From Actinomycetota bacterium (GTDB taxonomy: Bacteria > Actinomycetota > JAHEXW01): DNA of 64,000 bases. The stretch is taken from NCBI GenBank assembly GCA_025355855.1, contig JANXYU010000035.1, positions 20,604-84,603 on the forward strand. Reading direction: 5' to 3'. Shown one piece after another: positions 2,580 to 49,401 of this stretch; positions within the stretch are counted from its first letter, which is position 1, and every line of letters begins with the position of its first letter. Made by a program: the position numbers and the translations under genes. The notes below the pieces were generated by a model. That model did no database searches. It had not been told where the DNA came from and was given only the letters and a program-made list of their open reading frames with translations.

Positions 2580-4091
2580 GTGACTTGCGCTAAGCGTATC
2601 GTTTTAGCCGCCCTCGCGGGCGGCCTCCTAATTCTCAGTTTCCCTTGGGCCCGCCAAGGGTGGCTGGTCTATCTCGCGTTGCTTCCTCTTTTGGTAATAA
2701 TCTATAACACTCGCCCTTGGCAAGCCTGGCTTTACGGCTGGCTAACCGGCGCCGTCTTCTTTGGCGGGTTGTGTTATTGGGTCAGCTTTTATGGCCTTCT
2801 GCCGTGGTTGATAATGGCCGTCGGTATTGGGATATTCTTTGGCGCGGCGGCCGCCGGCGCGAGCTGGCTGGCGGCTCGCCTTGGGTCCGCGGCACGATTG
2901 TTGGCGCTGCCGGCCCTTTGGGCGGGGCTCGAGATATTGCGGTCGGAGACAGGCGTCTACAGTTTTCCCTTCGGCGTGCTCGGTTATTCCCAAGCCGGCT
3001 GGCAACCGGCGCTCGGGCTCGCGTCCTTCATCGGGGTCTATGGTATTTCCTTTGTCATTGTCATTGTAAACGTCGCTTTGTTTGAGGCGGCGCGCGTTTG
3101 GCGCAAGGAGAAAAGCCCGCGCTTCAGTGCCGCCGCGGCGGCCTTGTCTGTCGCGATCCTGGCGTTGGCCTTGGGCGCGTGGTCGGCGGCGACGGTTCCG
3201 GCAGGCGCGGGACCGGTCATCAAGGTAGCCTTAGTCCAGGCTAGTGTGCCCCAAGACGAGAAATGGCTGGCGACAAAACGAGATCAGATTATGACCGAGT
3301 ATAAGTCGCTGGTGCGCCGCGCCGCGCGCGGCCATCCCGACGTGATTGTCTTGCCGGAGGCAGCTTTGCCGGCTTATGTAGAAAAGGACAGTCCGCTATA
3401 CGAGGAGCTGGTTGGATGGGCTAAAGATGTCGAGACGCCGATTTTAGCCGGAGTTCCTCTTCTTAAAGGTAACGAAGCCATGAATACGGCGGTTCTGTTT
3501 GACGGCCGGGGCCGTTTCCTAGCTGACTACGCGAAGATGATCCCGACCCTATTTGGAGAGCAAGTGCCCTGGCGGCCGGTGACCGAGTTTATCTACCCGA
3601 TGTTCCGTTCGATCGGCGACATCACAGCCGGGCGGACCCAAACGATATTCCGCCTCCCCATACACCGCGAGGCGTTGACCTTTGGGGTATTGATCTGCTC
3701 GGAGTCGTTTTACCAGAGTCTAGCGCGGCAAGCGGTTGGCCGGGGCGGCGAGACCCTTTTCGTAATTACCAATGACGCCTGGTTTCGTTCATCGTCGGAA
3801 GCGCGTCTCCACTTCGACATGACCGCGTTCCGGGCGGCTGAAAATGGGCGGGAGGTAACGCAGACCGGCAACACCGGCATATCGGGTCACTTTGACGCCT
3901 CCGGTCACCCGGTCGAGACACTTGGGTTGGGGAACACGGGCGTTGTATTCGCAAAAGTGCAGGCTCGGACTGGGCGCACACTATATGGCCGGGGCGGCTG
4001 GTTTTTTCCCTACGCTTTGCTGATGGTCACGGCGTTGCTGCTAGGTCTATACCTAGCTGGTGAACGTTTGCACAAAGCCACAAAAGGCTAG
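2580..4091 (+). CDS. lnt: Apolipoprotein N-acyltransferase (Lnt): polytopic N-terminal membrane domain plus C-terminal CN-hydrolase (nitrilase-like) domain
   Basis: Multiple N-terminal TM helices; CN-hydrolase catalytic-triad context (VLPEAALPAY Glu, Lys, ICSESFY Cys); GTG start. Confidence 0.75.
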   Translation: MTCAKRIVLAALAGGLLILSFPWARQGWLVYLALLPLLVIIYNTRPWQAWLYGWLTGAVFFGGLCYWVSFYGLLPWLIMAVGIGIFFGAAAAGASWLAARLGSAARLLALPALWAGLEILRSETGVYSFPFGVLGYSQAGWQPALGLASFIGVYGISFVIVIVNVALFEAARVWRKEKSPRFSAAAAALSVAILALALGAWSAATVPAGAGPVIKVALVQASVPQDEKWLATKRDQIMTEYKSLVRRAARGHPDVIVLPEAALPAYVEKDSPLYEELVGWAKDVETPILAGVPLLKGNEAMNTAVLFDGRGRFLADYAKMIPTLFGEQVPWRPVTEFIYPMFRSIGDITAGRTQTIFRLPIHREALTFGVLICSESFYQSLARQAVGRGGETLFVITNDAWFRSSSEARLHFDMTAFRAAENGREVTQTGNTGISGHFDASGHPVETLGLGNTGVVFAKVQARTGRTLYGRGGWFFPYALLMVTALLLGLYLAGERLHKATKG

Positions 4092-4155: not shown

Positions 4156-5235
4156 ATGGCAGACGAGACGCCACAAGATAAGAAAGCGCAACCGCCGAAG
4201 AAATCTTCCGTGCCGGTAGAAGCGGCCGGCAAGGCTCAGCCGCAGCGGCGGCCGGTTCCGCGCAAGAGACCGGTGCGGCGTCGCGCTCTAGATCGCCGGG
4301 GTCATCCGGTATTGCGCCGGGTCATTAATATTGCCGCCGCCGTCGGTGTCCTGCTCCTCCTACTGGTTTTCCTTGGTTTGCCCAATCTTGTGACCTATCA
4401 GCCGAGTTTCTGCGGCGCTTGCCATCCTGAAGTCTACAGAGAATGGTCTACTTCCACACACGCCAAGACAGGGTGTATGACCTGCCACGTCAAAAGCGGC
4501 TTCGGCAACCTCATGCTCAGCCGCGTAGGCCTGCTGCAGCGCATCTATCTGAGGATTAATCCTGGCGAAGTGACCAGAATGAAAGCGAGCAAAGAGAAAC
4601 CGATCGGTTTCGTGGCACCGCCTCCGAACGAGGTTTGTCTGCCGTGTCATGAGGCTCGCAAAAGGATTTCCCAGGGCGGCGACATTATTATCCCGCATCA
4701 GTCCCACATCAAGATCAGACAGCTGTCCTGTACCGATTGTCATGAGAGTTTTGTTTGCGCCCGCATCGGGAAAACAAAAGCGATTGTTACGATGGAAGGC
4801 TGTTACCGTTGTCACAATGGTCGCCGGGCGACCAACGAGTGTACCGCTTGCCACACAGAAAAAGGCGCTCCGCCGTCGCACCGGGGCAAGTGGGTCCTAA
4901 GTCACGGGGCGGAAGCGCAAGCAGATAAAAACGCTTGCATGGAATGCCATTCGAAGCCGAAGGACTTTTGCAAGAACTGTCACGGCAACAAGCCCCCTAG
5001 CCATGTCGCGGACTTTGCCGTGACGCACAGTGTGGTCGCTGCGCAGAACAAGGCGGCTTGCCTGGAGTGTCACGACGAGAAGGTGACTTGCGCCAAATGC
5101 CATGGTGAAAGCGGCCAGGCGCATGACTCCAACTGGCGCAGCGTTCATCCGACTATCGCCCGTAACGGCATTCGGGATTGTTTTACCTGTCATAGTAAAT
5201 ACCACTGCAACGCGTGCCATCGTAATCCGTCCTAA
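4156..5235 (+). CDS. NapC/NirT-family dodecaheme membrane cytochrome c with a Lys/Pro/Arg-rich cytoplasmic N-terminal tail
   Basis: ~55-aa basic low-complexity tail, then a TM helix; 12 CXXCH (CGACH ... CNACH); paralogous to the 260 and 1115 proteins. Confidence 0.85.
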   Translation: MADETPQDKKAQPPKKSSVPVEAAGKAQPQRRPVPRKRPVRRRALDRRGHPVLRRVINIAAAVGVLLLLLVFLGLPNLVTYQPSFCGACHPEVYREWSTSTHAKTGCMTCHVKSGFGNLMLSRVGLLQRIYLRINPGEVTRMKASKEKPIGFVAPPPNEVCLPCHEARKRISQGGDIIIPHQSHIKIRQLSCTDCHESFVCARIGKTKAIVTMEGCYRCHNGRRATNECTACHTEKGAPPSHRGKWVLSHGAEAQADKNACMECHSKPKDFCKNCHGNKPPSHVADFAVTHSVVAAQNKAACLECHDEKVTCAKCHGESGQAHDSNWRSVHPTIARNGIRDCFTCHSKYHCNACHRNPS

Positions 5236-5259: not shown

Positions 5260-5892
5260 ATGCGTCCGGAAATCATCCCCGAGCCAACGTTAGTCAGACT
5301 CACCATCTACGGACGGTGTTTGAACGACCTGATGGAAGAAGGGGCCACCCTCGTCGCCTCGGATGAATTAGCGCATCGAGCCGGGGTAAACGCGGCCCAA
5401 GTGCGTAAAGACCTTTCCTATCTAGGCAGTTTCGGCCGACGGGGTGTCGGTTATGACGTCAGGCATCTTTCTGATCGGATTGCCACCGCCATGGGATTAA
5501 CCAAAGAGCGAGGTTTCATAATCGTCGGGGCTGGCCGCTTAGGCAGCGCGCTCATGGGTTACGACGGTTTTAACAAGAAGGGTTTTCGGGCTGCCGCAGC
5601 CTTTGACGCGGATATAAACAAGGTCGGGCAAGCGATCGGGTCGATAACGATTCGCGACATAAATGAACTGCCGTCGTTCGTCCACTCAAACGGCACTGAG
5701 ATCGGGATTATTACGGTGCCCGCCTCCCATGCCCAAGCGGTGGCCGACAACTTGGTGAAATCCGGTATCAAAGCCATCCTTAATTTCGCACCGATCGTTA
5801 TCAAGGTGCCAGCCGGGATTCGTTACCGGCAGGTTGAGTTGTCGAGCGAGATGGAAGTCCTAGCCCACTACCTCAACTCTCAGGGGGATTAA
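5260..5892 (+). CDS. rex: Redox-sensing transcriptional repressor Rex (NADH/NAD+ sensor)
   Basis: RBS AAGGAGG; N-terminal wHTH (PEPTLVRLTIYGRCLNDL..ASDELAHRAGVNAAQVRKDLSYLGSFGRRGVGYDV) plus a Rossmann GAGRLG motif, which is the Rex family hallmark. Confidence 0.9.
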   Translation: MRPEIIPEPTLVRLTIYGRCLNDLMEEGATLVASDELAHRAGVNAAQVRKDLSYLGSFGRRGVGYDVRHLSDRIATAMGLTKERGFIIVGAGRLGSALMGYDGFNKKGFRAAAAFDADINKVGQAIGSITIRDINELPSFVHSNGTEIGIITVPASHAQAVADNLVKSGIKAILNFAPIVIKVPAGIRYRQVELSSEMEVLAHYLNSQGD

Positions 5893-5904
5893 TGTCGCGA
5901 CGGT

Positions 5905-6615
5905 ATGGATCCAGCTGAGAAGCGCCGCGTAATGGTCGCCGGTGCCGCTTCTCTCACGGTCGTGTTCGTGCTGGCCTATATCATGTTACGCTTATCCGCC
6001 GGCCTAGCCCCCCAGGCCGATGCCTACCGTCGGGCCGACAACCGACAAACATTGGGCACGCATAGCCGTTTCATAGTTTACGATTTCTCCCGCGGCTCCA
6101 GTGTAGCCGTCGATATGGTTTGCGTGAAAGTGAGTCGCCATGCCGCCGTGTATGCTGAGCCCGCCTTAACATTGGCGCCCGGTTTGGTTGATCGGATCGG
6201 CACGGAATTTGACGATAACATCTTCCCGCTCAATAAAGCCGGCCTGGCGCCCCCGGCTTTAATGGGTTTGAACGGGACGAAGATGACAAAGATATTACTT
6301 CTGGAAGAGAGGCGCGGGCGGTCGGCCAATGGGAAGAAGATGCTGGCCGGCTATTACACGCAACAGAACGAACAGTTGCGCGCCTATCAGTCTGCCAGCA
6401 ACCAAGCCAAAATCGTGCATGTGTTTGTCGGTAATTTCGATGTCGACCAGGACGATATTATGGATACGGTCGCGCACGAAACACGTCATCTTACCAATTG
6501 GGCGGAAACACGCAACAACGTTGGCATGGCAATTAGCGGTCTCTTCGCCCTGGCCACTGTCATAACCCTTTATCTAGGTTTATCTCATATGTATTTGAGG
6601 AGCTTCGCGGCGTGA
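5905..6615 (+). CDS. Membrane protein with an HExxH motif (HETRH); putative Zn-metallopeptidase-like
   Basis: N- and C-terminal TM helices; a single HExxH; no further family assignment possible by eye. Confidence 0.45.
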   Translation: MDPAEKRRVMVAGAASLTVVFVLAYIMLRLSAGLAPQADAYRRADNRQTLGTHSRFIVYDFSRGSSVAVDMVCVKVSRHAAVYAEPALTLAPGLVDRIGTEFDDNIFPLNKAGLAPPALMGLNGTKMTKILLLEERRGRSANGKKMLAGYYTQQNEQLRAYQSASNQAKIVHVFVGNFDVDQDDIMDTVAHETRHLTNWAETRNNVGMAISGLFALATVITLYLGLSHMYLRSFAA

Positions 6616-8027
6616 ACCACGACATCTTTGATCGCGTTATCATGGCCTTGATATTCATTTTCTATGTTGTCTTATTCGAGGCATGGTTGATTATCTCGCC
6701 CGATCCCAGCTGGGGCGGAGTTGAGTTGATCTTCATGACCATCCCGATTCTGACGATGGTCATCCTCTACAATCTGGGAGTGGGAGCCGCCGTTGGCATA
6801 TTTTTGCTCGCGCTTTACGTTCCGGCAATTTCACCGGCTATGGCGGCCGGTACTGTTTCCGGGCCCGAATTATTGATGAAATTCATCCTGATCGGCGCTT
6901 TGGCATTCGGAGCGGCAATCTACAAAAGATTTGAGGAGAAGAAAAGGGAACGCATACGCCGTTTGGCGACCCGTCTGCAGCGCAAGGTTGATCAACAGAC
7001 CGACATCATTCAAGCGCAACAAGCTCTCGGCGCCAATCTGGACTTATCCGGCCAGCTGGACGCTTTTCTGCACTGGTCGATCCGGCTGGTCAACGCGCGG
7101 GCTGGCTACATCGCGGTCTATGACAAAGAGAGACGTCGGATAGTCGGGGCGCACTCGGACCGGCGGGGTGCGACCCCAGGCGCAACCGTTTTGCCGCCGC
7201 CTTTCACAAAGCTTAAACAGCAGGGTTCGACCGCCCCCGACAGCAGCGTTATAGACACGTTTATAAGCGAAATGGAACAACTGGACGACAGCATCTGCGT
7301 GCCTCTGCGGGTGCGTAAAGAGACCGTGGGAGCGCTCTGCCTGACGCCGCATCCAGAGCGATATTTTTCCGACGAGGACGCGGAGTTGATCGCGATGCTT
7401 GGGGTCAAGGCGGCCATCGCGATCGAGAACGCCAAACTTCACGAACTTAATATCCAGTTGTTCGTTGACAGCATCCGGGCCCTGGCTAAGATAATCAATC
7501 TGCGCGACCCTTTGACAAAGGACCACTCGGATAGAGTTGCGCATATGGCCGGACGTCTGGCCCGGCATATAGGGTTGCGCGGACAACCGCTGTCGAATGT
7601 TGTCCTAGCGGCTGACCTGCACGACATAGGCCGCATTGTGATCCCGGACAAGATTTTGAATAAACCGGGCCGACTGACCAAACAAGAATATGAGGTAGTT
7701 AAGCAACACCCGGCAGCGGGCTTTGATCTACTGCAAGGTGTGCGCGCGCTAAAGGACGTGTTGCCCGGCATCCGCTACCACCACGAACGATTTGACGGCG
7801 ACGGCTATCCGGATGGCTTAAGCGGCGAAGCGATACCTTTGATTGCCCGGATCATCGCTGTCGCCGATGTTTTCGAGGCGCTGACTTCAACCCGGTCCCA
7901 TCGCGGAGCGGTCACTCCGGAGGAAGCTGGGAAGGTCCTAAATGAGGTCGCTGGCAGCCAGCTCGACCCCGAGCTCGTGAAAGCTTTCCTAAATACCTAC
8001 AAGCTGGCGGAAGGCGTCGCCAAATGA
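6612..8027 (+). CDS. Membrane-anchored GAF plus HD-GYP domain protein (c-di-GMP phosphodiesterase)
   Basis: N-terminal TM helices, coiled-coil, GAF-like middle region; HD motif (LHDIGRIVIPDKILNKPGRLT) and GYP-like motif (HHERFDGDGYPDGL). Confidence 0.8.
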   Translation: MNHDIFDRVIMALIFIFYVVLFEAWLIISPDPSWGGVELIFMTIPILTMVILYNLGVGAAVGIFLLALYVPAISPAMAAGTVSGPELLMKFILIGALAFGAAIYKRFEEKKRERIRRLATRLQRKVDQQTDIIQAQQALGANLDLSGQLDAFLHWSIRLVNARAGYIAVYDKERRRIVGAHSDRRGATPGATVLPPPFTKLKQQGSTAPDSSVIDTFISEMEQLDDSICVPLRVRKETVGALCLTPHPERYFSDEDAELIAMLGVKAAIAIENAKLHELNIQLFVDSIRALAKIINLRDPLTKDHSDRVAHMAGRLARHIGLRGQPLSNVVLAADLHDIGRIVIPDKILNKPGRLTKQEYEVVKQHPAAGFDLLQGVRALKDVLPGIRYHHERFDGDGYPDGLSGEAIPLIARIIAVADVFEALTSTRSHRGAVTPEEAGKVLNEVAGSQLDPELVKAFLNTYKLAEGVAK

Positions 8028-8084
8028 AGCCTTGTGAGCAGGCGTTATGCTGAACACTAGTTGTCACGAGGCGGCGCCGCAAGC

Positions 8085-8113
8085 TTGCCAAGACCAGGTG
8101 GACTTGTTACAAT
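8085..8113 (+). promoter_or_regulatory. Candidate promoter: TTGCCA (8085-8090), 17-nt spacer, TACAAT (8108-8113), upstream of the 15-heme cytochrome gene
   Basis: Read directly in the 214-bp intergenic region. Confidence 0.3.
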
Positions 8114-8241
8114 TGAAGGGCTCCAATTTCGCACTTGAAACGCTATATTTGCTCCCTATTCGGCTGTTTGGAAGGCATCAAACTGTCGATACACTAGGTA
8201 GGGAGTATTGTCGTGCGCTCCGTGGCGAACATTAAGGATAA

Positions 8242-9762
8242 TTGATGGCAGACGACAACATCAACGACAAACAAAAAAAGGGACAGGAACCGGACGACAG
8301 CAATAAGCCGTCCGACCCGAAGGAGCCGGTAAGGTCCAAGAAACCGGCGCCTCGAAAAGCGGTTCCGCCCAAACCTGGTTCGTCCCAGGCGGGCGTCGTC
8401 CGGCCAGCCGCCGGCAAGAAACCGGTAAATCGGCCGTTGCCGGCTGGGGCGGCCGCGATGACCATCAACGGGGACAAGGACGAAGAAGAGGAGCGCCGCC
8501 GGCGGCTCATTCTAGCTCTGTGGTTGTTCATGTTTACCATCCTGATTGTCATCTTTGTTTTTGTCTTCTACAACCTTTTTTCCCCTTATCGCGGCAAGGA
8601 TGTTACCCAGAAGAAATGCCTGTCCTGCCACGCCAAAGAGATGGCTCGCCAACTTGGCTCGCAATACTTGCACGAACCGTTCGCTAAGGAATCTTGCACC
8701 AACTGTCATATCGAGCCGGACACGCCGGACAAGGCGTGCGACCCGACCAAGAAGATATACGCGGTCGTCGCCAATAAACTGGACAAGGTCTGCCTGAAAT
8801 GCCACACCCAAGCGAAAGGCGAAATGGGCAAGGTGGCGACGCACAAACCGTTCAAGAACGCGCAGTGCACCGACTGTCACGATCCCCACGGATCTCAGTT
8901 TGAACGGTTGTTGGTATCGCCGCCGACCGAGTTATGCGTATCCTGCCACTATGGCAAGGGATTCACGCAAGCGCATCAACACCAGCCAGCGCAGGCGAGA
9001 AACTGCGTTGACTGTCATGAACCGCACGCCAGTGACACTAAGAACGATCTCGTTCTACCGGTCGGTCAGCTGTGCTATTCCTGCCACTTCAAGGTAGCCC
9101 AGCAGAACCTGCGGCCTTTCAAGCACCAGCCATTCTTAACCGGTGACTGCACGAGCTGTCATCAGCCGCACAGTACAGCGGAGCCAAGGCTGATGGCGAA
9201 GGAATATAACACGCTTTGCATTTCCTGTCACCCGGCCATCGGCTCCGACTTTAATCGGCTGAGTCATCACCCTCTAGGACGGGAGCCGATGAAGAATTGC
9301 GGGGTTTGTCACCTGTACCATGCCGCGGACAATAAGAAGTTGTTGCCGCATCAAAATACAGTCAACTGTTATCAAGCCAACTGTCATCCCGGACTTCAGG
9401 CATATTTTGATACCTCGGAACACAACAGTACGGTCATGGGCATGTTGGCCAAGAAAGATCTGGAGGTTACCTGCAGCGCTTGCCATTCGCCGCACGGCGC
9501 CGACTTTGGCAAGCTCCTGACCGTTGATCGCTATGTCGTTTGCCTGGTCTGCCATGCCAAAGAAACTGGAGACCCAGCCCACCAGGTTTTCGCGCACGCT
9601 TTCGGACCACCGTTCGCCGACAGCTGGCATGGCGGGTACATCTGGTGCGGCAGCTGTCACAACTTCCACGGCTCACCGAATCCGGCCATGCGGCTGGCGT
9701 TAGGTGATGATCTTTGCTTGAAGTGTCATAACGCTGATACGCTTACTAGTACGTTCCGATAA
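8242..9762 (+). CDS. Multiheme cytochrome c of the 'paired/doubled CXXCH' type, ~15 hemes, membrane-anchored with a ~100-aa Lys/Pro-rich N-terminal tail
   Basis: 14 CXXCH plus 1 CX4CH (CYQANCH), arranged as 7 repeats of C..CH-x(12-20)-H..PF-x-C..CH.PH; TM helix after the basic tail. Confidence 0.85.
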   Translation: MMADDNINDKQKKGQEPDDSNKPSDPKEPVRSKKPAPRKAVPPKPGSSQAGVVRPAAGKKPVNRPLPAGAAAMTINGDKDEEEERRRRLILALWLFMFTILIVIFVFVFYNLFSPYRGKDVTQKKCLSCHAKEMARQLGSQYLHEPFAKESCTNCHIEPDTPDKACDPTKKIYAVVANKLDKVCLKCHTQAKGEMGKVATHKPFKNAQCTDCHDPHGSQFERLLVSPPTELCVSCHYGKGFTQAHQHQPAQARNCVDCHEPHASDTKNDLVLPVGQLCYSCHFKVAQQNLRPFKHQPFLTGDCTSCHQPHSTAEPRLMAKEYNTLCISCHPAIGSDFNRLSHHPLGREPMKNCGVCHLYHAADNKKLLPHQNTVNCYQANCHPGLQAYFDTSEHNSTVMGMLAKKDLEVTCSACHSPHGADFGKLLTVDRYVVCLVCHAKETGDPAHQVFAHAFGPPFADSWHGGYIWCGSCHNFHGSPNPAMRLALGDDLCLKCHNADTLTSTFR

Positions 9763-9800
9763 ATGAACATGCTTAAACAATTGAAAAGAGGTACCCTAAA

Positions 9801-10565
9801 GTGGTTCTAGACAATCTTTCTGACGCTTCGCTGAACAAGGCGATAAAATATGTTGCGATCGCCGTAGCGGCGGTCATTGTTATCGGAATCGGCCTGGTGA
9901 TATATCAAGCGATTCCTTCCAACCAATTGTCCCCGGCGGTGCGGGACGAGATTGCGAAGACTAAGGCGGCGATCACTAAGGATCCGACAGACGCGGACGC
10001 CCACGTCAAATTGGCCAGCATCTATATCACGGAAGAGATGTATTCCGACGCCCAAACCGAACTGGACAAGGCACTGAAACTAAACAGCAACAACATGGCG
10101 GCCCTGCAGTTGATGGGCGCGTTATTTGAAAGGAACGGCAACCCCGCTAAAGCGGTCACCTACTACAACAAGGTCATCACACTGGGTGACAAGACGGAAT
10201 TCAAGTCGCTCAACCCATACCTGTACGAAGCCATTTACCGCCTAGGCAAGATCTATGTCGACGAGAAGAAGAACAAACAGGCGATCACCGTTCTGGAGAA
10301 AGGTGTTGCGATAAACTCGATAGACTCCGACCTAAGGTACGTCCTCGGCCTTGGCTACCTACACGACAACCAGCCGGACAAAGCGATATCTGAATTCGAG
10401 ACCGCTTTGAAGTATGTACCTGATTTCGCCGAAGCCTATTTCGGGCTCGGTCAAGCTTACGCCAAGAAAGGCGACAAGGCGCAAGCCAAAGCCGCGTACC
10501 AAAAAGCGGTAGCGAACAAAGCAAACTATACGGAAGCTGAGGAGGCTTTGAAAAAACTAAAATGA
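9801..10565 (+). CDS. TPR-repeat protein with an N-terminal TM anchor
   Basis: Tandem 34-aa repeats with the A..Y/L..G signature (e.g. AEAYFGLGQAYAKKGDKAQAKAAYQKAV). Confidence 0.75.
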   Translation: MVLDNLSDASLNKAIKYVAIAVAAVIVIGIGLVIYQAIPSNQLSPAVRDEIAKTKAAITKDPTDADAHVKLASIYITEEMYSDAQTELDKALKLNSNNMAALQLMGALFERNGNPAKAVTYYNKVITLGDKTEFKSLNPYLYEAIYRLGKIYVDEKKNKQAITVLEKGVAINSIDSDLRYVLGLGYLHDNQPDKAISEFETALKYVPDFAEAYFGLGQAYAKKGDKAQAKAAYQKAVANKANYTEAEEALKKLK

Positions 10566-11563
10566 GCGTAGATAACATAATTCAACAATCTCAGAGCAAA
10601 CGTAACAAAAAGTTGCTTCTGCTCGGCGGTCTTATTCTCATCCTGATTCTGATTATCATCGCGGTGCTCTATTATTTCCTGCACAAGCAATCGATTACCA
10701 GCGCCTTGCCGGGCCGGGCCACGGCGCCGATTTACCGCAGCTCTTTGGAGGGCGGTCTGGATTGGCCGCTCGGGGTTACGGTCAGCCCGGACGGTAATAC
10801 CATTTACGTGGTCGATTCCAATAACAAGATGGTCAAGATGTTCGACCCCAATGGCACGCAAACCGGCAACTTTGGACAAAGACCGGCCGACAAAACCGCG
10901 GACACGGCTTTCTCCAACCCGCTGTACGCCGCGGCGGCGTCGAATGGAAAAGTTTACGTGACCGACAGAAGCTCGGCGATGGTCGTGGTCTACGACCCCG
11001 CCACAAAGCAGACGACCAGATTCAGTCCGCAGGTCGATAAGACTTTTACCTGGAGCCCTCTCGGCATCTGCGTCGACAAGAAAGACAATATCTATGTTAC
11101 CGACGCGACCAAAGGCACCCATCGGGTCCTGGTTTTCAATCCGAACGGCAAGTTGATTCTTCAATTCGGCAAGGAAGGCCAGAACCAAGGCGAGTTCTCC
11201 TTCCCGAACGGGATCACCGTCGGAGGGGACGGCTCTATATATGTGGCCGACAGCAATAACAGCCGCGTCCAGGTCTTTAGTAAAACCGGCAAATACAAGT
11301 TCAGCATAGGGAACGCCGGCGGCAAGGCCGCGCTGGGTCATCCTGTGGGGATTTGTTTCGATGTCAGCGGAAACCTGAACGTGACCGACACGTTCGGCCA
11401 TGCCGTGCAGGTGTACGATAAAAACGGTAAATATCTCTATAAATATGGCGAATACGGAACGAAAAATGGGCAGTTCCAATTTCCTATGGGTATTGCGTCG
11501 CTAAATAATTCGGTGTATGTTGTCGATAGAGAAGGTAAGAGGGTTCAAATCTGGCAGCATTGA
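10562..11563 (+). CDS. NHL-repeat six-bladed beta-propeller protein, N-terminally membrane-anchored
   Basis: Six repeats of the NHL signature (G...YV.D..N.R..VF...G; FS.P.GI). Confidence 0.8.
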   Translation: MSVDNIIQQSQSKRNKKLLLLGGLILILILIIIAVLYYFLHKQSITSALPGRATAPIYRSSLEGGLDWPLGVTVSPDGNTIYVVDSNNKMVKMFDPNGTQTGNFGQRPADKTADTAFSNPLYAAAASNGKVYVTDRSSAMVVVYDPATKQTTRFSPQVDKTFTWSPLGICVDKKDNIYVTDATKGTHRVLVFNPNGKLILQFGKEGQNQGEFSFPNGITVGGDGSIYVADSNNSRVQVFSKTGKYKFSIGNAGGKAALGHPVGICFDVSGNLNVTDTFGHAVQVYDKNGKYLYKYGEYGTKNGQFQFPMGIASLNNSVYVVDREGKRVQIWQH

Positions 11564-11723
11564 TGACTCGAAAAGGTTGTTTTTTGCTTACCGAAGTGTT
11601 ACATTGGAAAGGTGCTAGAGGTAAACGTATCTACTGGTCATAATGCACCTCAGCTCTGATAGTGAGTAGCAGTTCCGGCGAACAAGCATAAGGAATGAGC
11701 TTACTAGCAAGGCAAGGGGCATC

Positions 11724-12827
11724 GTGGCGAACACAGGGTTCTTGAGGAATAAACGCGAATTTTCAACAAAGCCCGGCCATTGGGCTTTGTTTGCGCTTTA
11801 CAAAACTCTATTCCTATCAGCCGCGACACTCCTTTTTGTACTACCCCAAACAGCCGCAGCGGTCGGACCGCATGGTGGCTATTCAAACAAGACAGACCTC
11901 TGTAGCACTTGCCATATGGTCCATACCGCCAAGACGAAAACGCTACTGTCGCAAAGTACGGCTACCGGAACCTGTCTTTCGTGTCACTCGAACGGTATCG
12001 GTTCGGATACCGCCGTTAACGCCGGCGCGCTGATGCATCCGGTCAATCCGGGTGATCCGATTCCGACCACCTGGCCAAAGCTTTTGGGCGGCGGTTTCGT
12101 GACGGTAGGTAACGCGAGTCCGGTTACTCTGGGAAAACACACGCTTGGGTATTCTAACCATCCAGCCGGTAACAACAACGCCGGTGAGGTCTATCAGATG
12201 GAATGCACATCCTGTCATACACCGCATTTTGGCCCGAACTACCGGCTCCTGCGCCAGCGGCCGGGAGACGCGGCTAGTGACATCTCCGTCCCTTGGAACG
12301 GCCCGGAGACAACAACCGCAACCGACGCGAATGGCGTCTCGACAACGACTACCGACAACAAATATACAGAAGTCGACTATTCCGGCGGCAACCCGGCCGC
12401 TTCGAAAGAGATGACCCGCAACTACAAAGCGAACATTGCCACCTGGTGTACCGCGTGTCATGAGCGTTATATGACACGGGTAGACGAGACGGCCTTCAAC
12501 ACCGGCGACATGATCGGCAACGTCGCCCGGTATCGGCACGCCGTGGACGTGACGATAAATAAAGATACTCCGGATGTGATTAATTCCCGCGTCTATAAAC
12601 TAACGACCGACCTGCCTCTGCAGGATTTGACGGGCAACGGCCGGACGCCGGATGACACGATGACATGTCTTTCGTGCCACCGGGCACACGGTACGGACGC
12701 GACCGTCGGCGGCGAAGCTGTTCTGCCGGCGGCCGAACGCGGACCTTTGCCGGCAGGCGAAGACGCGATGCTTCTGCGTTTGAACGACAGGCTAGTGTGC
12801 AAGTCCTGTCATAAGGTAAGTGCCTAA
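11724..12827 (+). CDS. Secreted hexaheme c-type cytochrome, OmcS-like (nanowire cytochrome family) paralog 1
   Basis: Signal peptide; 6 CXXCH; motif pattern matches OmcS as recalled (HGGYS..CSTCH.VH, CLSCHSNG.GSDT, LLGGGF, CTSCHTPH...NYRLLR, TWCTACH.RYMTR, RYRH, CLSCHRAHGTD, C-terminal C..CH). Confidence 0.8.
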   Translation: MANTGFLRNKREFSTKPGHWALFALYKTLFLSAATLLFVLPQTAAAVGPHGGYSNKTDLCSTCHMVHTAKTKTLLSQSTATGTCLSCHSNGIGSDTAVNAGALMHPVNPGDPIPTTWPKLLGGGFVTVGNASPVTLGKHTLGYSNHPAGNNNAGEVYQMECTSCHTPHFGPNYRLLRQRPGDAASDISVPWNGPETTTATDANGVSTTTTDNKYTEVDYSGGNPAASKEMTRNYKANIATWCTACHERYMTRVDETAFNTGDMIGNVARYRHAVDVTINKDTPDVINSRVYKLTTDLPLQDLTGNGRTPDDTMTCLSCHRAHGTDATVGGEAVLPAAERGPLPAGEDAMLLRLNDRLVCKSCHKVSA

Positions 12828-12828
12828 G

Positions 12829-13950
12829 ATGAGGGTGAAGAAGATGCGCGGTCGTAATCTTACGACAATTAAAGAGAGCATCATCCGCCGGGCGGCGGTA
12901 GTGTTCGCCGCCGCCGCCACGGTGTTGATTTTGGCCGCTCCCTCCGCCTTCGGGCTTGATTTCTCGGGCGGATCGCACGTCGGCTTCACGTCCGGTTCGG
13001 GCTCGTGCGCTCTGTGCCACCGCTCTCACACCGGCGCGGCTAAGAACCTCTTAAAATCTAACTCGATGTGCGTCACCTGCCACGGGCACTTAATGGGTGC
13101 CGACACAGACACGGTCGACGGCGTTTACGCGGATTCGAAGAACCCGGCCCATTCCTGGGCCACCGACGGCGGTACGCTGCTCGGCGGCGGTTTCAAGTAC
13201 CTCGGCGGGACGGCCGGCAAACCGGTTACCTCCGCGCACCATATCGGGGACATCGACGGCGTCGCGCTCGATCCTATCACGCCGTACGGTTCGACGACCG
13301 GGGCCAGCATCGCGCTGGGCTGTACGGATTGTCACAGCATGCACTCCGATTTCGAGAATCCGGCCAGCGTTGGCCAATACCGATTATTGAGTCTGGATCC
13401 AGGCAAGAGCGGGCAAAGTCTGGCCGTTGCTTGGAATGGACCTTGGACGGACGGCACTCAGACGGCCAAGACGGCCGCGATCACGGCTACGACCAACATG
13501 GGATATACCGAGCATGACTTCTCCGGAGACCCCGCTCCGGCCTCAGGTTTGGTAGAATATACAAGGAACTATAGAAGCGGTATGTCCGCTTGGTGTGAAG
13601 GTTGCCATTCCGTTTACGGAACGCCGGAAGGCGCTGGCGGCAGTCCCGATAACGTCCCGTATCACCGGCACAAGATGGACGTGCCCTTGGTTTGGACGGC
13701 TCGTCTTTCTGGCGCGCCCGCGACCGATCTCCCCCTGAACGACCTGGGTGCTTTGGGTCGGTCGAGCGAGGACTTGATGAACTGCGCCACTTGCCATCGG
13801 GCGCATGGTACCGACAAACAGATGTCAGGGACGTTCCTAACGGCCGGCCGGATAGGCCTGCCAGCGATGAATACGAGTATGTTGCTTCGGTTGGATAACC
13901 GGGGCGTTTGCATAAACTGTCACGCTTATTTGAATTCGGACACTTACTAA
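12829..13950 (+). CDS. Secreted hexaheme OmcS-like cytochrome paralog 2 (ORF track starts at GTG 12820; ATG 12829 preferred, AAGGTAAG 8 nt upstream)
   Basis: Signal peptide; 6 CXXCH (CALCHRSHTGAAKN, CVTCH, CTDCH, WCEGCH, CATCHRAHGTD, CINCH); colinear with 11724-12827. Confidence 0.8.
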   Translation: MRVKKMRGRNLTTIKESIIRRAAVVFAAAATVLILAAPSAFGLDFSGGSHVGFTSGSGSCALCHRSHTGAAKNLLKSNSMCVTCHGHLMGADTDTVDGVYADSKNPAHSWATDGGTLLGGGFKYLGGTAGKPVTSAHHIGDIDGVALDPITPYGSTTGASIALGCTDCHSMHSDFENPASVGQYRLLSLDPGKSGQSLAVAWNGPWTDGTQTAKTAAITATTNMGYTEHDFSGDPAPASGLVEYTRNYRSGMSAWCEGCHSVYGTPEGAGGSPDNVPYHRHKMDVPLVWTARLSGAPATDLPLNDLGALGRSSEDLMNCATCHRAHGTDKQMSGTFLTAGRIGLPAMNTSMLLRLDNRGVCINCHAYLNSDTY

Positions 13951-35563: not shown

Positions 35564-37978
35564 ATGATGAACCGATTGCACCGGTTCCAGCCGGTAGGTA
35601 GGGGCGGATTTACCCCGTGGTTGATTGCGGCGGTCGGCGTTTTGGCAACGCTGTTTCTGACCTATTTCTCCGCTTCCGGGCTGACCTACAAAAATATTGA
35701 AACGGATTATCAGAAGACTTATTCCCATTACGCTCCGGCGGGCAAGCACAGCGATACCGAAACCTATGCCTGGGATCCGTCCCTTGGCTCGACCGACGTC
35801 GAACGGCTGACGGCCAATCTCAGCAAGCGGCACGCTAATTGCGACGACTGCCATGATCCGCATTCGGCCACGCGAGCCTCGTCACCTCTCGGTAGCTATT
35901 TCGGCGCCGGGACGCAAGCCAATGTCAGCGGCGTCCGCCCGGTTTACGGATTGACGGCAGGCACGGTACCGCAGTTCGCTTTCGAAGCCTCAGTCGTCAA
36001 AGAGTACGAGCTCTGTTTCAAGTGCCATTCCAGCTATGCTTTCAACTACGATTTGTATCAGGCGACCTATGGACACCCAATGGCGTTCAACTGGACAAAG
36101 CGGCGTTACTGGCAGCCCGGCGATCCGGGGACTGACGATATTATCAACGAGACGGATACCGCCAAAGAATTCAACCCGAACAACGTTTCTTACCACCCCG
36201 TGCTAAAGCAAGGACCAATCCCGGGAAACAAGACTCTAACCTGGGCCAACGGAATATATTTCGACGAGACGTTCGTGCCGGGGATGGGCGCGGGCAGCTA
36301 CATAAAATGCAGCGACTGCCATACCAGCGACACCAATAACGCCAAAGGCCCGCACGGGTCCAACCAGCGTTATATCCTAGCGGCGCGCGCGCCGACGCAG
36401 GAACCGACGATTACCCGGTCCATCACACTTGGCGCCATCCGGCCGACCAACGGGGGCGGCCGATCTGCGGCGGCCATGGTCTGGTACATCCGGACAACTG
36501 AACTCCTCTGTTATAAATGCCATAGCGTCGACTATTATGGTCCAGGCAAAGGGCATCCGTCGCACGGTAAGCATTCGACCAACTGTACCTGGCACCGGCC
36601 TATCGCCTTAGATGAAGTAGGCTGCGCGACGTGCAAGGCGACGCCGATTCACGGCTCAGTGGCGACACCTTATTTGATGATTTTTAATAACGGCAGCTGG
36701 TGCTACAACTGCCACCCGTTTAGGGCTGGCGCGCGCGGTTCCGACTATATGGGCGGCGAACCGTCCTGCCCCCGCTTCTATTCCGTTGCCTCCGACGGGA
36801 CGACAGTCGAAGAGACCCGCGTCCACTTCCAGTCCTCTCGCCTGAAGGCGGGCGCTGAGTACGATGTGCCCCTGCCGACGCCGGACATGCCTAACCTGAA
36901 GGGCCTGGGCAACATCCCGGCCTACAGATACTACAATCGCGACGACGACTACGTCCTGTTCAAAAAAGGCACACCGGTCATCGATGCGAAAGCCAACACA
37001 TACTCGGTCACCTTCAACCAACCCTCCTCGGGCGACAGGCCCGACGGCCAACCGGTGGGCGAGGTCGGCTACGAGGACCAGATATCATTGTGGACGGTAG
37101 ACCACGCCAAAGACAGTCAGGTCTATGTCTCCGTCGAGGGGAACGTGACCGCAGTCAAACCTACCGACGTAGTCACGCCGAAGACGGCCACCGACAACCT
37201 GGGCAACGACGTAACCGACGTCATCGCTCGCCGGACGCTCTCGACCGAGGACCGCTCCGGCTGGTTTACCGGCACCGTCGGCTACGGCAACACCATCGAC
37301 GAGATCTACAAATCAGGCAACTCCTTCGTCATGGACTTCGGGGACTTGAGTTCCGCCAAGACGGTCAAGCTCCTCTGGGGCGTCAACGAGGAGAAAGGCG
37401 GCAAACTGCCGATATACGTCCAGACGAAGAACGCCAAAGGACAATGGGTCACCCGAGGGAGTGCCCGACACTCCGAGGACCGTTTCGGCTACCTCGACTT
37501 GACCGGACTCTTCCCCAAGGGGACCCGTCACTTCCAGGTGAAGATCATCCCAACCTTGAACTCCATTGACTACATGGCGATCGCCACGAAAGACTCGCCC
37601 GTCAAGGTAAATAAGCTACCTATCAAGCAAGCGACCTATACCAAGTATCAGGGAGAGACGACCGACGTCACGGCCTTACTAAACGCGCGCGACAACCAAT
37701 ACGTCACATATGATTATCGCGATACGAGCAATCTCTTATTCACCATACCCGCCAAGGACAAGACCTTGACGCGACGCGACTTCCTGTTCGCGCCCGTCGG
37801 CTACTACGAGACTGGCGGCGACATCAACCCGAAAGCAACGCTGGACCCAATGACGGCGGAGAAGGCGCAAGACTTCGCCACGGTCACTCCGGCCGGCGGT
37901 TACGCCAATCATTACAACATCGGCTTGATCGACCCGGGCGCTTGGAACGAGACTTGGGATAGCAGGCTGGTGAAGTGA
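35564..37978 (+). CDS. Membrane-anchored pentaheme c-type cytochrome (N-terminal ~400 aa) fused to a C-terminal ~400-aa beta-rich domain of unknown function (ORF-track start 35513; ATG 35564 with RBS GAGGGAG preferred)
   Basis: TM helix; CDDCHDPH, CFKCH, CSDCHTSDTNNAKGPHGS, CYKCH, CYNCH; no heme motifs in the C-terminal half. Confidence 0.8.
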   Translation: MMNRLHRFQPVGRGGFTPWLIAAVGVLATLFLTYFSASGLTYKNIETDYQKTYSHYAPAGKHSDTETYAWDPSLGSTDVERLTANLSKRHANCDDCHDPHSATRASSPLGSYFGAGTQANVSGVRPVYGLTAGTVPQFAFEASVVKEYELCFKCHSSYAFNYDLYQATYGHPMAFNWTKRRYWQPGDPGTDDIINETDTAKEFNPNNVSYHPVLKQGPIPGNKTLTWANGIYFDETFVPGMGAGSYIKCSDCHTSDTNNAKGPHGSNQRYILAARAPTQEPTITRSITLGAIRPTNGGGRSAAAMVWYIRTTELLCYKCHSVDYYGPGKGHPSHGKHSTNCTWHRPIALDEVGCATCKATPIHGSVATPYLMIFNNGSWCYNCHPFRAGARGSDYMGGEPSCPRFYSVASDGTTVEETRVHFQSSRLKAGAEYDVPLPTPDMPNLKGLGNIPAYRYYNRDDDYVLFKKGTPVIDAKANTYSVTFNQPSSGDRPDGQPVGEVGYEDQISLWTVDHAKDSQVYVSVEGNVTAVKPTDVVTPKTATDNLGNDVTDVIARRTLSTEDRSGWFTGTVGYGNTIDEIYKSGNSFVMDFGDLSSAKTVKLLWGVNEEKGGKLPIYVQTKNAKGQWVTRGSARHSEDRFGYLDLTGLFPKGTRHFQVKIIPTLNSIDYMAIATKDSPVKVNKLPIKQATYTKYQGETTDVTALLNARDNQYVTYDYRDTSNLLFTIPAKDKTLTRRDFLFAPVGYYETGGDINPKATLDPMTAEKAQDFATVTPAGGYANHYNIGLIDPGAWNETWDSRLVK

Positions 37979-39087
37979 GCCGGCGCGCCATTATGGCCAC
38001 CATTGGCGTTGTCATAGCGGCGATCGTGCTAATTGGCGGAGGATACCTGCTCTACCGGTATCTGAGGCCGAGTTACAAGTTGCAAGCGGTATATGTAACG
38101 ACAGAACCAAAGTTGGACGGCCAAGGGAATGACGCGGTCTGGAAAAACGCGCCGGAGCTGACGATTCCGATAGATCAGGCCGAGCCGATTACGATTAAGG
38201 CGGTCTATACGAAGACCAAGATTTTCTTTCTGGCGCGTTATGCCGATTCGAGCCAAGACGCGGTCTTCTCGCCCTGGGTGTACGACGGCAAGACTTGGGC
38301 ACACGGACGCCGCGGGGACGCTCTGGAGCTGTTTTTTGACATCGGAAACTCGGTGGTTGGTTTCCCGGACAAGGGTTTCAAGATAATGACCTACGGGTTT
38401 AAGCCGGGTTTAGAGATTTATAATTTTGGCCAGATAAACAAAGGGAAAAGCAAGAAGGTCTGGCCGGGCAGCCGGGGACGCGCCGATGTATGGCTGATGG
38501 GCGCGGGTAACGGGGCCGCTTTCGGAATCGGAGACGATATGATCTACCAGGCTAATCAGGACTATCTATTCAGTCCGGAGACAAGTCAGGCGCAAGTTTG
38601 GCCGCAATGGGATCAATTCACGAATCTTCGGGCCATCAACTTGAATAGTGACACGTGGCGCGAGGCCATCGCGGCCAGTGAAGGCGGCGAAGCGAAAAGC
38701 GTTAAGCAGGAGCAGCCGTATCTAATGTACACAGAGGGATTGAATCTCAACAATACGCCATATCCCTTCGACGATCAGCTGACGCCGATGACCGCCAGCG
38801 CGACCGCTCGAGCGGGCGACAAACTGCCTTTTGTCTACTACGCTCGCGATACCAAGGGAAATTGGGGTGGCAGCCGGGGAGACGTTAAGGGCACCATGAA
38901 ATGGTTGGCCGGAAACTGGACCGTCGAGATGGGCCGAAGTCTGAACACCAAGAACCCGGACGACATCGTATTTCGGACCAGAGAAGTAAATAACGTTCAT
39001 TTCGGGGCTTTGGTGCGGCGCGACGGGCAGACGACCCGGTTTAGCCCGCCGGCCACACTTGAGCTAGTGCCCCAGGGAGGCGAATAG
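37975..39087 (+). CDS. DOMON/CBM9/EB_dh-like secreted protein, family member 1 (TM-anchored, no heme-c motif)
   Basis: Family motifs: KLDGQGNDAVWKNAPELTI, GDDMIY, NNTPYPFD, WGGSRGDV, LNTKNPDDIVF; GTG start overlapping the upstream stop. Confidence 0.65.
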   Translation: MSRRAIMATIGVVIAAIVLIGGGYLLYRYLRPSYKLQAVYVTTEPKLDGQGNDAVWKNAPELTIPIDQAEPITIKAVYTKTKIFFLARYADSSQDAVFSPWVYDGKTWAHGRRGDALELFFDIGNSVVGFPDKGFKIMTYGFKPGLEIYNFGQINKGKSKKVWPGSRGRADVWLMGAGNGAAFGIGDDMIYQANQDYLFSPETSQAQVWPQWDQFTNLRAINLNSDTWREAIAASEGGEAKSVKQEQPYLMYTEGLNLNNTPYPFDDQLTPMTASATARAGDKLPFVYYARDTKGNWGGSRGDVKGTMKWLAGNWTVEMGRSLNTKNPDDIVFRTREVNNVHFGALVRRDGQTTRFSPPATLELVPQGGE

Positions 39088-39088
39088 C

Positions 39089-40138
39089 ATGATAAAAAGA
39101 CATGGCTTAGTTAGTCTGGCGTTATTTGTCCTCCTCGCGGCGGCTTCCGGCTGCGCGACCGCTAGCAAAGCGGCGACATTCAAGGCTCCGGCCAACACCT
39201 TAAGCGCAGTCAAGGTAACCGGCGCGTTTACGATTGACGGCAATTCCAGTGAACCGGCCTGGAGTAAAGCCACAGCGGTAATGATTCCGCTCAAGGCTGA
39301 AGCAGGCGTCGAGGCCAAAAAGGTCACACTGCGCGCCGTCTACGACGACAAAAACATATATGTGGCGGCGGCTTACGCCGACGCGACACCGCTTAAATTA
39401 GGCGAGGCGTGGACATTTGACGGCGCGGCCTGGAAGAAGGGCAGCTTTGACGACACGCTGGCTTTCGTTTGGAACATTAATGACTCCATTCCCGGCTTCA
39501 ATCAGCGGGGCATGGGTGTCATGACGAAACCGCTGACGAAGGGTATGGACGTTTTCGACTTCCAGCTGGCTGCCTCCGACAATAAGACAGCGGCCGCCAA
39601 AGCTGATTTTTGGGGCTGGTGCGGGATGCCGGAATTCTATGGCCGGGGCGACGACATGATATTTGCGCTTGATGAGCAAACCAAACTGGGCGGGCTAACA
39701 AAGACGCTAACGGTGCGGCATGACGCGCATACGAACAGCACGCCTTGGATTCGCAACGAAGCCACGGTCAACGGCTCGGCCGTTCCTAAGTATAAATATA
39801 AAGCGGGTTTCGACATCAACAACACGCCCCGGCCTTACGAGGATCAAGTGGAAGCTATCACCGACTACTCGACGTTCAAAGCCGGAGACCGAGCTCCATA
39901 TGTAGTAGGTATTAGGGGCGCCACCTGGGGCGGCAGTAAGGACGACATTAGAACAAAAGGCAGGCGTTCCGCGGGTGATTGGCAGGTTGAGTACGCGCGA
40001 GCGCTGGACACAGGACACGCCGACGATATCAAACTCGTACCCGGCGAGACGGTGACGTTCATCGTTGTTTTGCGCGATGACGCTAAGGGCTACGCGATCA
40101 GCGCTCCCGTTACGCTAAGACTCGGAGAAGGTGGGTAG
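39089..40138 (+). CDS. DOMON/CBM9/EB_dh-like lipoprotein, family member 2
   Basis: RBS GGGAGG; lipobox AASGC; motifs IDGNSSEPAWSKATAVMIPL, WNINDSIPGFNQRG, FWGWCGMPEFYGRGDDMIF, NNTPRPYED, WGGSKDD, LDTGHADDI. Confidence 0.7.
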   Translation: MIKRHGLVSLALFVLLAAASGCATASKAATFKAPANTLSAVKVTGAFTIDGNSSEPAWSKATAVMIPLKAEAGVEAKKVTLRAVYDDKNIYVAAAYADATPLKLGEAWTFDGAAWKKGSFDDTLAFVWNINDSIPGFNQRGMGVMTKPLTKGMDVFDFQLAASDNKTAAAKADFWGWCGMPEFYGRGDDMIFALDEQTKLGGLTKTLTVRHDAHTNSTPWIRNEATVNGSAVPKYKYKAGFDINNTPRPYEDQVEAITDYSTFKAGDRAPYVVGIRGATWGGSKDDIRTKGRRSAGDWQVEYARALDTGHADDIKLVPGETVTFIVVLRDDAKGYAISAPVTLRLGEGG

Positions 40139-40141
40139 GTC

Positions 40142-41206: not shown

Positions 41207-41238
41207 GGAAGGTAACGCGAACGGCGCGTAATTCACAT

Positions 41239-45963: not shown

Positions 45964-45986
45964 TTGAGAAGTGAGAGGAGAGGGAA

Positions 45987-49385: not shown

Positions 49386-49401
49386 AGGCCGAATACCAAT
49401 A

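Follow-up and report, generated by a model that had tools for sequence, protein, structure and literature searches.

Do the TPR and NHL proteins encoded beside OmcS-like cytochromes constitute a dedicated machine for building or exporting cytochrome filaments, or do they serve multihaem cytochromes more broadly? The question is raised by a 64-kb stretch of DNA from an uncultured Actinomycetota (positions 20,604 to 84,603 of contig JANXYU010000035.1, assembly GCA_025355855.1; hereafter the window, whose coordinates we use throughout), in which genes for a TPR protein, an NHL beta-propeller and two hexahaem cytochromes follow one another. An earlier note on this DNA had called these genes and a giant open reading frame (ORF) behind them, all on the + strand, and its coordinates and gene calls were correct; it had further held that the order mirrors the Geobacter omcS neighbourhood. 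We compared ORFs from the window by Pfam, BLASTP, phmmer, profile and hhalign searches. As far as these comparisons allow, the best reading is that the span would form the centre of an extracytoplasmic electron-transfer cluster of the Gram-positive (Thermincola-like) type. We consider it probable that this cluster provides a route for electrons from quinol to the cell surface via the hexahaems, with the TPR and NHL proteins acting as anchored helpers that position or nucleate a hexahaem.

The genes of the central block are closely spaced and run head to tail:

8242–9762, + strand: membrane-anchored 14-haem cytochrome (14 CxxCH motifs; hydrophobic segment at residues 86–118; Paired_CXXCH_1, E 7e-63)
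9801–10565, + strand: TPR protein of 254 amino acids (aa) (Pfam TPR_2; one N-terminal anchor)
10562–11563, + strand: NHL six-bladed beta-propeller of 333 aa (Pfam NHL; N-terminal anchor, flexible linker)
11724–12827, + strand: hexahaem cytochrome A of 367 aa with a signal peptide (OmcS/CwcA family; six CxxCH motifs)
12829 (ATG) or 12820 (GTG) to 13950, + strand: hexahaem cytochrome B of 373–376 aa (OmcS/CwcA family; six CxxCH motifs)
13983–35516, + strand: giant surface-type protein of 7177 aa (ten CxxCH motifs, all in the last ~1340 residues)

Results

Conservation of the TPR–NHL–hexahaem order

To determine how often these genes occur together, ORFs were called in all fetched loci and searched with profiles made from the window TPR, NHL, NapC-like and hexahaem proteins together with the relatives found first. 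The counts given here cover 69 distinct species-level loci with at least 2.5 kb upstream of the OmcS-like gene; these loci are phylogenetically related, and the counts do not represent independent events. An NHL-family gene lay upstream of the OmcS-like gene, on the same strand and within 6 kb, in 60 of the 69 loci, and within 500 nucleotides (nt) of it in 39. An adjacent pair, TPR then NHL, was found in 51 loci, 21 of which had a NapC gene directly ahead of the TPR gene in addition. The TPR–NHL–hexahaem order is real, far beyond chance and conserved across three mainly monoderm phyla, as the earlier note had supposed in describing a conserved arrangement.

Species-representative genomes that carry the family belong mostly to Actinomycetota (including Coriobacteriia), Chloroflexota and Bacillota, the last with Thermincola, Desulfosporosinus and Carboxydocellales among its carriers; a minority of the family comes from diderm lineages. 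A report of 2020 had already described an OmcS homologue from a Coriobacteriales genome (PMC7399161). The nearest relative of the window, with 88% cytochrome identity, is a groundwater metagenome-assembled genome (MAG; GCA_023251915.1, Actinomycetes bacterium isolate nzgw113), which keeps the order from Lnt through Rex, GAF-HD, multihaem, TPR, NHL and two hexahaems to a 7157-aa gene. The gene order is also kept at 46% cytochrome identity in GCA_040960625.1.

Relationship of the window hexahaems to OmcS

Cytochrome B is 35% identical to cytochrome A, and its ATG at 12829 lies one base past the cytochrome A stop. When either cytochrome was searched alone by phmmer against all PDB chains, OmcS was not matched at E ≤ 1; pairwise BLASTP of the two to OmcS gave E-values of 5e-7 and 2e-6, at ~25% identity. 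A 39-sequence family profile matched OmcS (6ef8) with E 5e-21, and hhalign of the 39-member profile with a 16-sequence OmcS-family alignment gave 99.8% probability and E 3e-29 over 252 columns, spanning haems 1–5. Judged through the family profile, the window hexahaems are remote OmcS homologues, and the earlier claim that both cytochromes are OmcS-related was borne out by the BLASTP and profile searches.

Each of the five hexahaem paralogues in the window (355–376 aa) has six CxxCH motifs, and exactly twelve His residues are invariant across the five, as twelve are in the OmcS family. The order of these residues is alike in both sets: a first His closely precedes haem 1, motifs 1, 3 and 5 have the form CxxCHxxH, and single His residues lie in the stretch from haem 2 to haem 3 and behind haem 4. 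Among strong six-haem matches from the fetched loci, 94 of 98 had CxxCHxxH at motifs 1, 3 and 5 only. The alignment made by hhalign places four of the six distal His residues opposite those of OmcS. The axial ligands of OmcS, twelve in number, are without exception His, and a neighbouring subunit contributes one of them (PMC6584659). The His just upstream of haem 1 (H50 in cytochrome A, H53 in cytochrome B) and the C-terminal CxxCH that the earlier note had listed for OmcS occur in both cytochromes. The MSxWC..CH block that it listed is present in cytochrome B (MSAWCEGCH) and reads IATWCTACH in cytochrome A, and its NC.SCHRAHG block recurs inexactly, as TCLSCHRAHG in A and NCATCHRAHG in B. Wang and colleagues reportedly identified, in 2019, the His after motif 1 (CxxCHxxH) as the trans-ligating His of OmcS, which ligates haem 5 of the adjacent subunit.

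A haem-free AlphaFold2 (AF2) model of the hexahaem was poor and matched no structure. Clustered at 50% identity, the family comprises 8374 clusters at E ≤ 1e-3, 3515 at E ≤ 1e-10 and 821 at E ≤ 1e-30. None of the TPR, NHL, hexahaem and spermine-synthase-like proteins has a curated NCBIfam family.

The TPR and NHL proteins

The TPR protein matched Pfam TPR_2 with E 1e-25 and the NHL protein matched Pfam NHL with E 6e-39. The stop of the TPR gene and the start of the NHL gene overlap as ATGA, which suggests that the two are translationally coupled. Each protein has a single N-terminal hydrophobic segment (residues 9–41 of the TPR protein), and this anchor is kept in 53 of 57 TPR orthologues and 76 of 81 NHL orthologues. 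The AF2 model of the NHL protein (predicted local distance difference test score, pLDDT, 73) consists of a helix at residues 3–46, a disordered linker and ~23 strands that form a six-bladed propeller, for which Foldseek found solved NHL domains at E 7e-19 and template-modelling (TM) scores of 0.78–0.82. The TPR protein matched PF23914 (TPR_CcmH_CycH) with an E-value of 2e-8 and 34.7 bits, below the cut-off of 42, and matched NrfG weakly; MamA, PilW and other generic TPR models scored higher than the CcmH/CycH and NrfG models.

Comparison with the Geobacter omcS locus

In the Geobacter omcS locus (L008/L009), omcS and omcT are preceded by genes for a PMT_2–TPR glycosyltransferase on the opposite strand, a histidine kinase, a sigma-54 response regulator and a 315-aa ORF, and are followed by genes for a 1017-aa spermine-synthase-like membrane protein, an OmcS-like protein (GSU2501, oscC), a YncE-type propeller (OscD) and OscE. 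The 315-aa ORF, in the position of GSU2505, lies directly upstream of omcS on the same strand and has no Pfam match. In BLASTP, this ORF (from L008) matched the window NHL protein with E 4e-10 over ~280 residues, in agreement with the earlier note, which had placed an NHL gene beside omcS. In the literature, GSU2505 is an NHL repeat protein on which the assembly or expression of OmcS possibly depends (PMC9070056). In a leave-out test with an NHL profile that contained no diderm sequences, the Geobacter protein scored 75 bits, compared to 100–111 bits for unrelated NHL proteins encoded on the opposite strand at two loci. Thus, fold class and position are common to the Geobacter and window proteins, whereas their orthology is unproven.

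The earlier note had also placed a TPR gene next to omcS. The only candidate, the 544-aa PMT_2–TPR fusion, was rejected as a counterpart of the window TPR gene: its architecture differs, it is on the opposite strand, ~5 kb upstream and beyond the two-component system, and its match is generic (3e-9). Because this distant fusion is the sole TPR gene near omcS, TPR–NHL–omcS is not the Geobacter arrangement. Diderm-type loci from Krumholzibacteria, Poribacteria and Ignavibacteriales likewise have the NHL gene and no TPR gene.

The omcS and omcS-companion (osc) cluster of Geobacter sulfurreducens (GSU2505–GSU2493) was described by Shen et al. (2025, Cell Chem Biol 32:239) and is summarised in PMC13194489 and PMC12977616; in the former summary, the beta-propeller OscD affects OmcS nanowire morphology. 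We rejected the window NHL protein as an OscD equivalent (E 0.002 against the OscD-position protein). Profiles for OscD, OscE and peptidyl-prolyl isomerase (PPIase, OscH-type) had no match in the 64-kb window, and Pfam found no rotamase domain in window ORFs of at least 150 aa. The window protein encoded at 42281–44722 matched the Geobacter GSU2502-position protein by BLASTP at 7e-11, and a spermine-synthase-like membrane gene stands ahead of one or more OmcS-like genes in both loci (42281–48227 in the window, GSU2502–GSU2501 in Geobacter). This genuine parallel lies outside positions 9801–13950, the span of the earlier note. A similar spermine-synthase-like/hexahaem pairing was seen in a Coriobacteriia MAG (L042).

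The claim that the window mirrors Geobacter therefore holds for tandem genes of the OmcS superfamily and, in position and fold class, for an NHL propeller gene directly upstream on the same strand, and fails for the TPR gene and for OscD-, OscE- and OscH-type genes. Geobacter has no small anchored TPR partner, whereas the window does; the window hexahaems are ~60 residues shorter than OmcS and related to it remotely; and Geobacter is a diderm with a periplasm and an outer membrane to cross.

Comparison with the Thermincola ImdcA–CwcA cluster

The cluster of Thermincola potens and T. ferriacetica (TherJR_1117–1122, Tfer_0070–0075) appears, from gene content and order, to match the window more closely than the Geobacter omcS locus does. 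We took the ImdcA sequence from the supplement of PMC7911101. Its best match, at 63% identity, was in locus L052, which stands in for Tfer_0070–0075 by locus-tag arithmetic; the published cwcA and imdcA primers had no match in any fetched locus. The order in L052 is ImdcA-like, NapC-like, 17-haem, TPR, NHL and hexahaem, and the step of five genes from ImdcA to the hexahaem thus fits Tfer_0070 to Tfer_0075 (CwcA). The window has the same order of NapC-type decahaem(s), large membrane multihaem, TPR, NHL and hexahaem. BLASTP of the window proteins against their L052 counterparts gave 4e-62 for the 14-haem protein, which is the first of the TPR–NHL–hexahaem block and matches the 17-haem protein encoded at the same position, and 1e-10, 3e-32 and 4e-24 for TPR, NHL and hexahaem (cytochrome A against the CwcA-position protein), respectively. 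The order large multihaem, TPR, NHL, hexahaem recurs in L055, L056, L072 and L087. L072 belongs to the cultured Desulfosporosinus paludis SB140 (NZ_CP144211.1), where the genes read NapC, NapC, TPR, NHL, cytochrome, NHL, cytochrome.

CwcA is a six-haem protein that is insoluble when expressed alone and has been modelled on OmcS as a polymer spanning peptidoglycan (PMC7911101). The window and Thermincola proteins have in common six bis-His haems with the OmcS ligand pattern, whereas identity between the window hexahaem and the protein at the CwcA position is low, at ~25%. The window also differs in having five hexahaem paralogues, the 7177-aa haem protein, EB_dh proteins, and Rex and GAF-HD genes inside the cluster, and in belonging to Actinomycetota rather than Bacillota. 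A phmmer search with the nonahaem OcwA against all window ORFs gave no match at E ≤ 0.01, which is weak evidence, since Thermincola OcwA is encoded elsewhere. The type of system, the association of the pair with cytochromes and the OmcS–CwcA link are already in the literature, and the window is an actinobacterial member.

Enzymes and other cytochromes in the same frame

At many loci from Coriobacteriia and Actinomycetes, the NHL and hexahaem genes are 3–5 kb apart, with enzyme genes in the gap. In L048, the gap (5302–11056) holds a molybdopterin oxidoreductase with a twin-arginine translocation (Tat) signal and an iron-sulphur (FeS) subunit; in L030, a locus of the groundwater MAG most closely related to the window, it holds the small and large subunits of a NiFe hydrogenase (6844–11305). 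At least 12 loci have a molybdoenzyme pair and ~10 a hydrogenase, ~20 loci together, and the OmcS-type 1-3-5 His pattern was present in 18 of 18 hexahaems from such enzyme-coupled loci. We saw no cytochrome b subunit at these loci. The hexahaem and NapC-type cytochrome may replace the usual membrane anchor of the hydrogenase or molybdoenzyme. The presence of enzymes inside the NapC–TPR–NHL...hexahaem frame indicates that the frame is a general link of extracytoplasmic redox modules to the membrane, beyond a mineral-reducing wire.

For the converse test, we seeded metagenome contigs on the NHL protein with a 6-sequence alignment and obtained 51 loci that extended far enough downstream. The nearest relatives of the seed are encoded in TPR–NHL–hexahaem clusters. 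A multihaem ORF started within 700 nt downstream of the NHL gene in 37 of the 51 loci, most commonly encoding a ~630-aa 11-haem protein whose start overlaps the NHL stop, and a strong OmcS-like gene was present in only five. Thus, the NHL propeller is a companion of multihaem cytochromes generally. The NHL/11-haem pair recurs in L111, L116, L122, L126, L128, L130, L134–L136, L139 and L149–L156, from metagenomes of mostly soil and peat, often with a 16-haem cytochrome and a second NHL gene ~5 kb upstream.

Comparable neighbourhoods have been described before. NHL- and TPR-repeat genes in Dethiobacter alkaliphilus clusters were suggested to aid cytochrome secretion and orientation (PMC10376724), NHL propellers were noted in clusters of Desulfovibrio ferrophilus IS5, Geoalkalibacter and Ca. 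Tenderia (UetH/I) (PMC5815863, PMC12016550, bioRxiv 10.1101/2022.05.06.490989), and NHL/TPR proteins have been proposed as assembly or orientation factors (PMC9070056, PMC10376724, PMC5815863). The Dethiobacter, D. ferrophilus and Ca. Tenderia clusters resemble the window in placing NHL propellers, sometimes with TPR proteins, beside multihaem cytochromes that they are proposed to stabilise, secrete or orient; they differ in their cytochrome families, and the reports are descriptive.

Neighbouring genes in the window

The other features of the window that bear on the cluster are as follows:

215–1093, + strand: NapC/NirT-type decahaem cytochrome (Pfam Cytochrom_NNT; ten CxxCH; ImdcA/PdcA-like)
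1115–1963, + strand: NapC/NirT-type decahaem cytochrome (Pfam Cytochrom_NNT; ten CxxCH; BLASTP of Thermincola ImdcA, 9e-38)
4156–5235, + strand: 12-haem cytochrome (ImdcA/PdcA-related; kept in L001, L002 and L010)
5260–5892, + strand: Rex redox-sensing repressor (Pfam Put_DNA-bind_N and CoA_binding; same place in L001, L002 and L010)
5905–6615, + strand: 236-aa membrane protein with HExxH (hydrophobic segments; order kept in L001 and L002)
6612–8027, + strand: GAF and HD-GYP-type (HD_5) protein (Pfam; order kept in L001 and L002)
42281–44722, + strand: polytopic membrane spermine-synthase-like protein (Pfam Spermine_synth)
44896–45963, 45987–47099 and 47133–48227, + strand: three further hexahaems (same twelve His; paralogues 34–48% identical)

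By phmmer, ImdcA matched the two decahaems at 3e-28 and 2e-25, and PdcA matched them at 3e-22 and 1e-20. These decahaems are candidate quinol oxidases at the membrane. Homologues of the giant gene occupy the same position in L001 (7157 aa) and L002 (6500 aa) and contain Big_5, DUF2341 and Laminin_G_3 domains. Cytochromes of ~900–3000 aa come after the hexahaems in many loci, with one of 3054 aa in a Thermincola MAG (L061), and the 7177-aa protein is a candidate distal electron-transfer partner.

The products of 5905–6615 and 6612–8027 are candidate processing or regulatory proteins. The 236-aa protein has N- and C-terminal hydrophobic segments and a HExxH motif that reads VAHETRHL, had no match in Pfam or NCBIfam, and is encoded after Rex and before the GAF-HD gene in L001 and L002 too. 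OzpA processes OmcZ, and the 236-aa protein may, as a membrane metalloprotease, similarly process one of the proteins of the cluster. The earlier note had described the lineage as high-GC and Rex-bearing; Rex is present, and the GC content of 0.51–0.59 is moderate.

A promoter-like site was found at 8085–8113, upstream of the 14-haem gene; it is weak, and the promoter/terminator scan was near background. Rex-box-like sequences lie at 4058–4075, ahead of the 12-haem and rex genes (2 mismatches), and at 7975–7992, ahead of the 14-haem gene (3 mismatches). The search for Rex operators gave 4 sites compared to 1.5 expected, with 5 of 100 shuffles as good, and was not significant.

Eight EB_dh ORFs (ethylbenzene dehydrogenase gamma-like, haem-b-binding) are interleaved with cytochrome genes at 37975–42294, 48510–50556 and 58544–59608. 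The segment 50558–62892 contains three B12-binding radical SAM genes, a UbiA prenyltransferase gene, two peptidase-U32-like genes and a polyprenyl synthetase gene, which suggests that a pathway to quinone or another isoprenoid cofactor is encoded next to the cytochromes. A further TPR protein, encoded at 63005–63577, scored above the Pfam threshold for the CcmH/CycH TPR domain.

Discussion

We infer that the TPR and NHL proteins are anchored scaffolds or assembly factors for multihaem cytochromes of the wall zone. In the model that we favour, NapC-type decahaems would oxidise quinol, so that electrons leave the quinol pool and pass via the anchored 14-haem protein to the hexahaems. The hexahaems would probably stack head to tail through the wall zone by means of the trans-ligating His, as proposed for CwcA, and the stack would reach the giant haem-bearing surface protein. 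The TPR and NHL proteins, each predicted to be held by a single N-terminal helix and to expose the repeat domain on the outer side of the membrane, would offer a platform for protein interaction. This platform would capture the hexahaem after Sec export and haem loading and would position or nucleate it by the membrane cytochromes. Such proteins would help wall-zone multihaem cytochromes in general and be neither a secretion channel nor specific to nanowires, and the same frame would wire hydrogenases and molybdoenzymes to the membrane.

Several points weigh against this model. To our knowledge, no experiment bears on a TPR or NHL protein of this kind, and no monoderm OmcS-like cytochrome has been seen to polymerise. 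Two of the distal His residues, H50 and H272, are only positionally analogous to those of OmcS and were left unaligned by hhalign. The variants with hydrogenases or molybdoenzymes show that the hexahaem could serve as a short electron carrier rather than a wire, and the NHL relatives that accompany 11- and 16-haem cytochromes may point to a generic role. Finally, the weak resemblance of the TPR protein to CcmH/CycH would point to maturation rather than placement.

The earlier note favoured a dedicated assembly or secretion module for filaments, and the TPR and NHL proteins could on that account be the counterpart of the Geobacter omcS-companion machinery, inherited with omcS. We regard this explanation as unlikely. 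It draws on the NHL-class genes that immediately precede omcS in Geobacter and OmcS-like genes in the MAGs of Krumholzibacteria, Poribacteria and Ignavibacteriales, on the GSU2502-like membrane protein encoded ahead of further OmcS-like genes in the window, and on the altered nanowire morphology ascribed to the propeller OscD (Shen et al., 2025, as summarised in PMC13194489). However, Geobacter and the other diderm-type loci are without an equivalent TPR protein, orthology of the NHL proteins is not demonstrable, the window NHL protein is not OscD-like, and the window contains no OscE or PPIase homologue. The ~20 loci that enclose enzymes, together with the 37 of 51 loci in which NHL relatives precede multihaem genes, mostly other than OmcS-like ones, argue against dedication to filaments. 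A monoderm cell would, moreover, have no outer membrane to cross, and neither protein resembles a channel or an ATPase.

A role that ends before assembly is a still more doubtful prospect. Here, the TPR protein would act as a holdase for apocytochrome, akin to CcmI/CycH or NrfG, and would hand over the unfolded hexahaem for haem attachment, while the NHL protein would aid folding. In System I, CcmI has a membrane anchor with an outward-facing TPR domain, a layout that the window TPR protein resembles, and both the System I proteins CcmI/CycH and NrfG and the window protein are encoded beside c-type cytochromes. The sub-threshold PF23914 match and the weak NrfG match point in the same direction, as does the link of TPR/NrfG-like genes to multihaem maturation in Tenderiales clusters (bioRxiv 10.1101/2022.05.06.490989). 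Yet these matches fall below curated thresholds and are outscored by generic TPR models; all haem motifs are canonical CxxCH, which makes a special lyase unnecessary; Pfam found no cytochrome-maturation genes in the window; and partner lyase genes are missing nearby. The adjacent 14-haem and decahaem cytochromes would need the same service, but the pair tracks the hexahaem.

Adhesion, in which the NHL propeller with the TPR protein would bind wall polymers, minerals or partner cells and be co-expressed with the cytochromes without contacting them, is very improbable: NHL proteins of electron-transfer clusters have been suggested to act in adhesion or nanocrystal binding (PMC12016550; bioRxiv 10.1101/2022.05.06.490989, citing Gmet_0556), but a short linker holds both window proteins at the cytoplasmic membrane, under the wall and away from minerals, and the pair is conserved to the same degree beside a hydrogenase or molybdoenzyme, whose substrates are soluble.

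The model of anchored helpers for wall-zone cytochromes can be extended to a more speculative proposal, which we hold only tentatively. The TPR–NHL pair might be a minimal two-protein nucleation platform, a monoderm functional counterpart of the Osc machinery, that starts OmcS-type haem wires at the cytoplasmic membrane. Such wires might serve as a universal wall-zone cable with interchangeable distal modules linked to the quinone pool: the giant surface protein here, and NiFe hydrogenases and Tat-exported molybdoenzymes in Coriobacteriia and related lineages.

How electrons cross the thick wall of Gram-positive bacteria and other monoderms is understood mostly through a model that rests on Thermincola CwcA, a single insoluble protein. 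The window shows a CwcA-type module in subsurface Actinomycetota, and in related loci the module is connected to hydrogenases and molybdoenzymes in addition to surface reductases. Not every OmcS homologue should therefore be read as an extracellular nanowire, a caution that bears on metagenomic 'nanowire' annotation in a family of 3515 clusters (50% identity, E ≤ 1e-10). Across three phyla, the TPR–NHL pair is the most faithful companion of the module and the most consistent uncharacterised partner of OmcS/CwcA-type cytochromes in monoderms. The pair is thus a concrete candidate for the missing assembly or anchoring factors, and cultured carriers exist.

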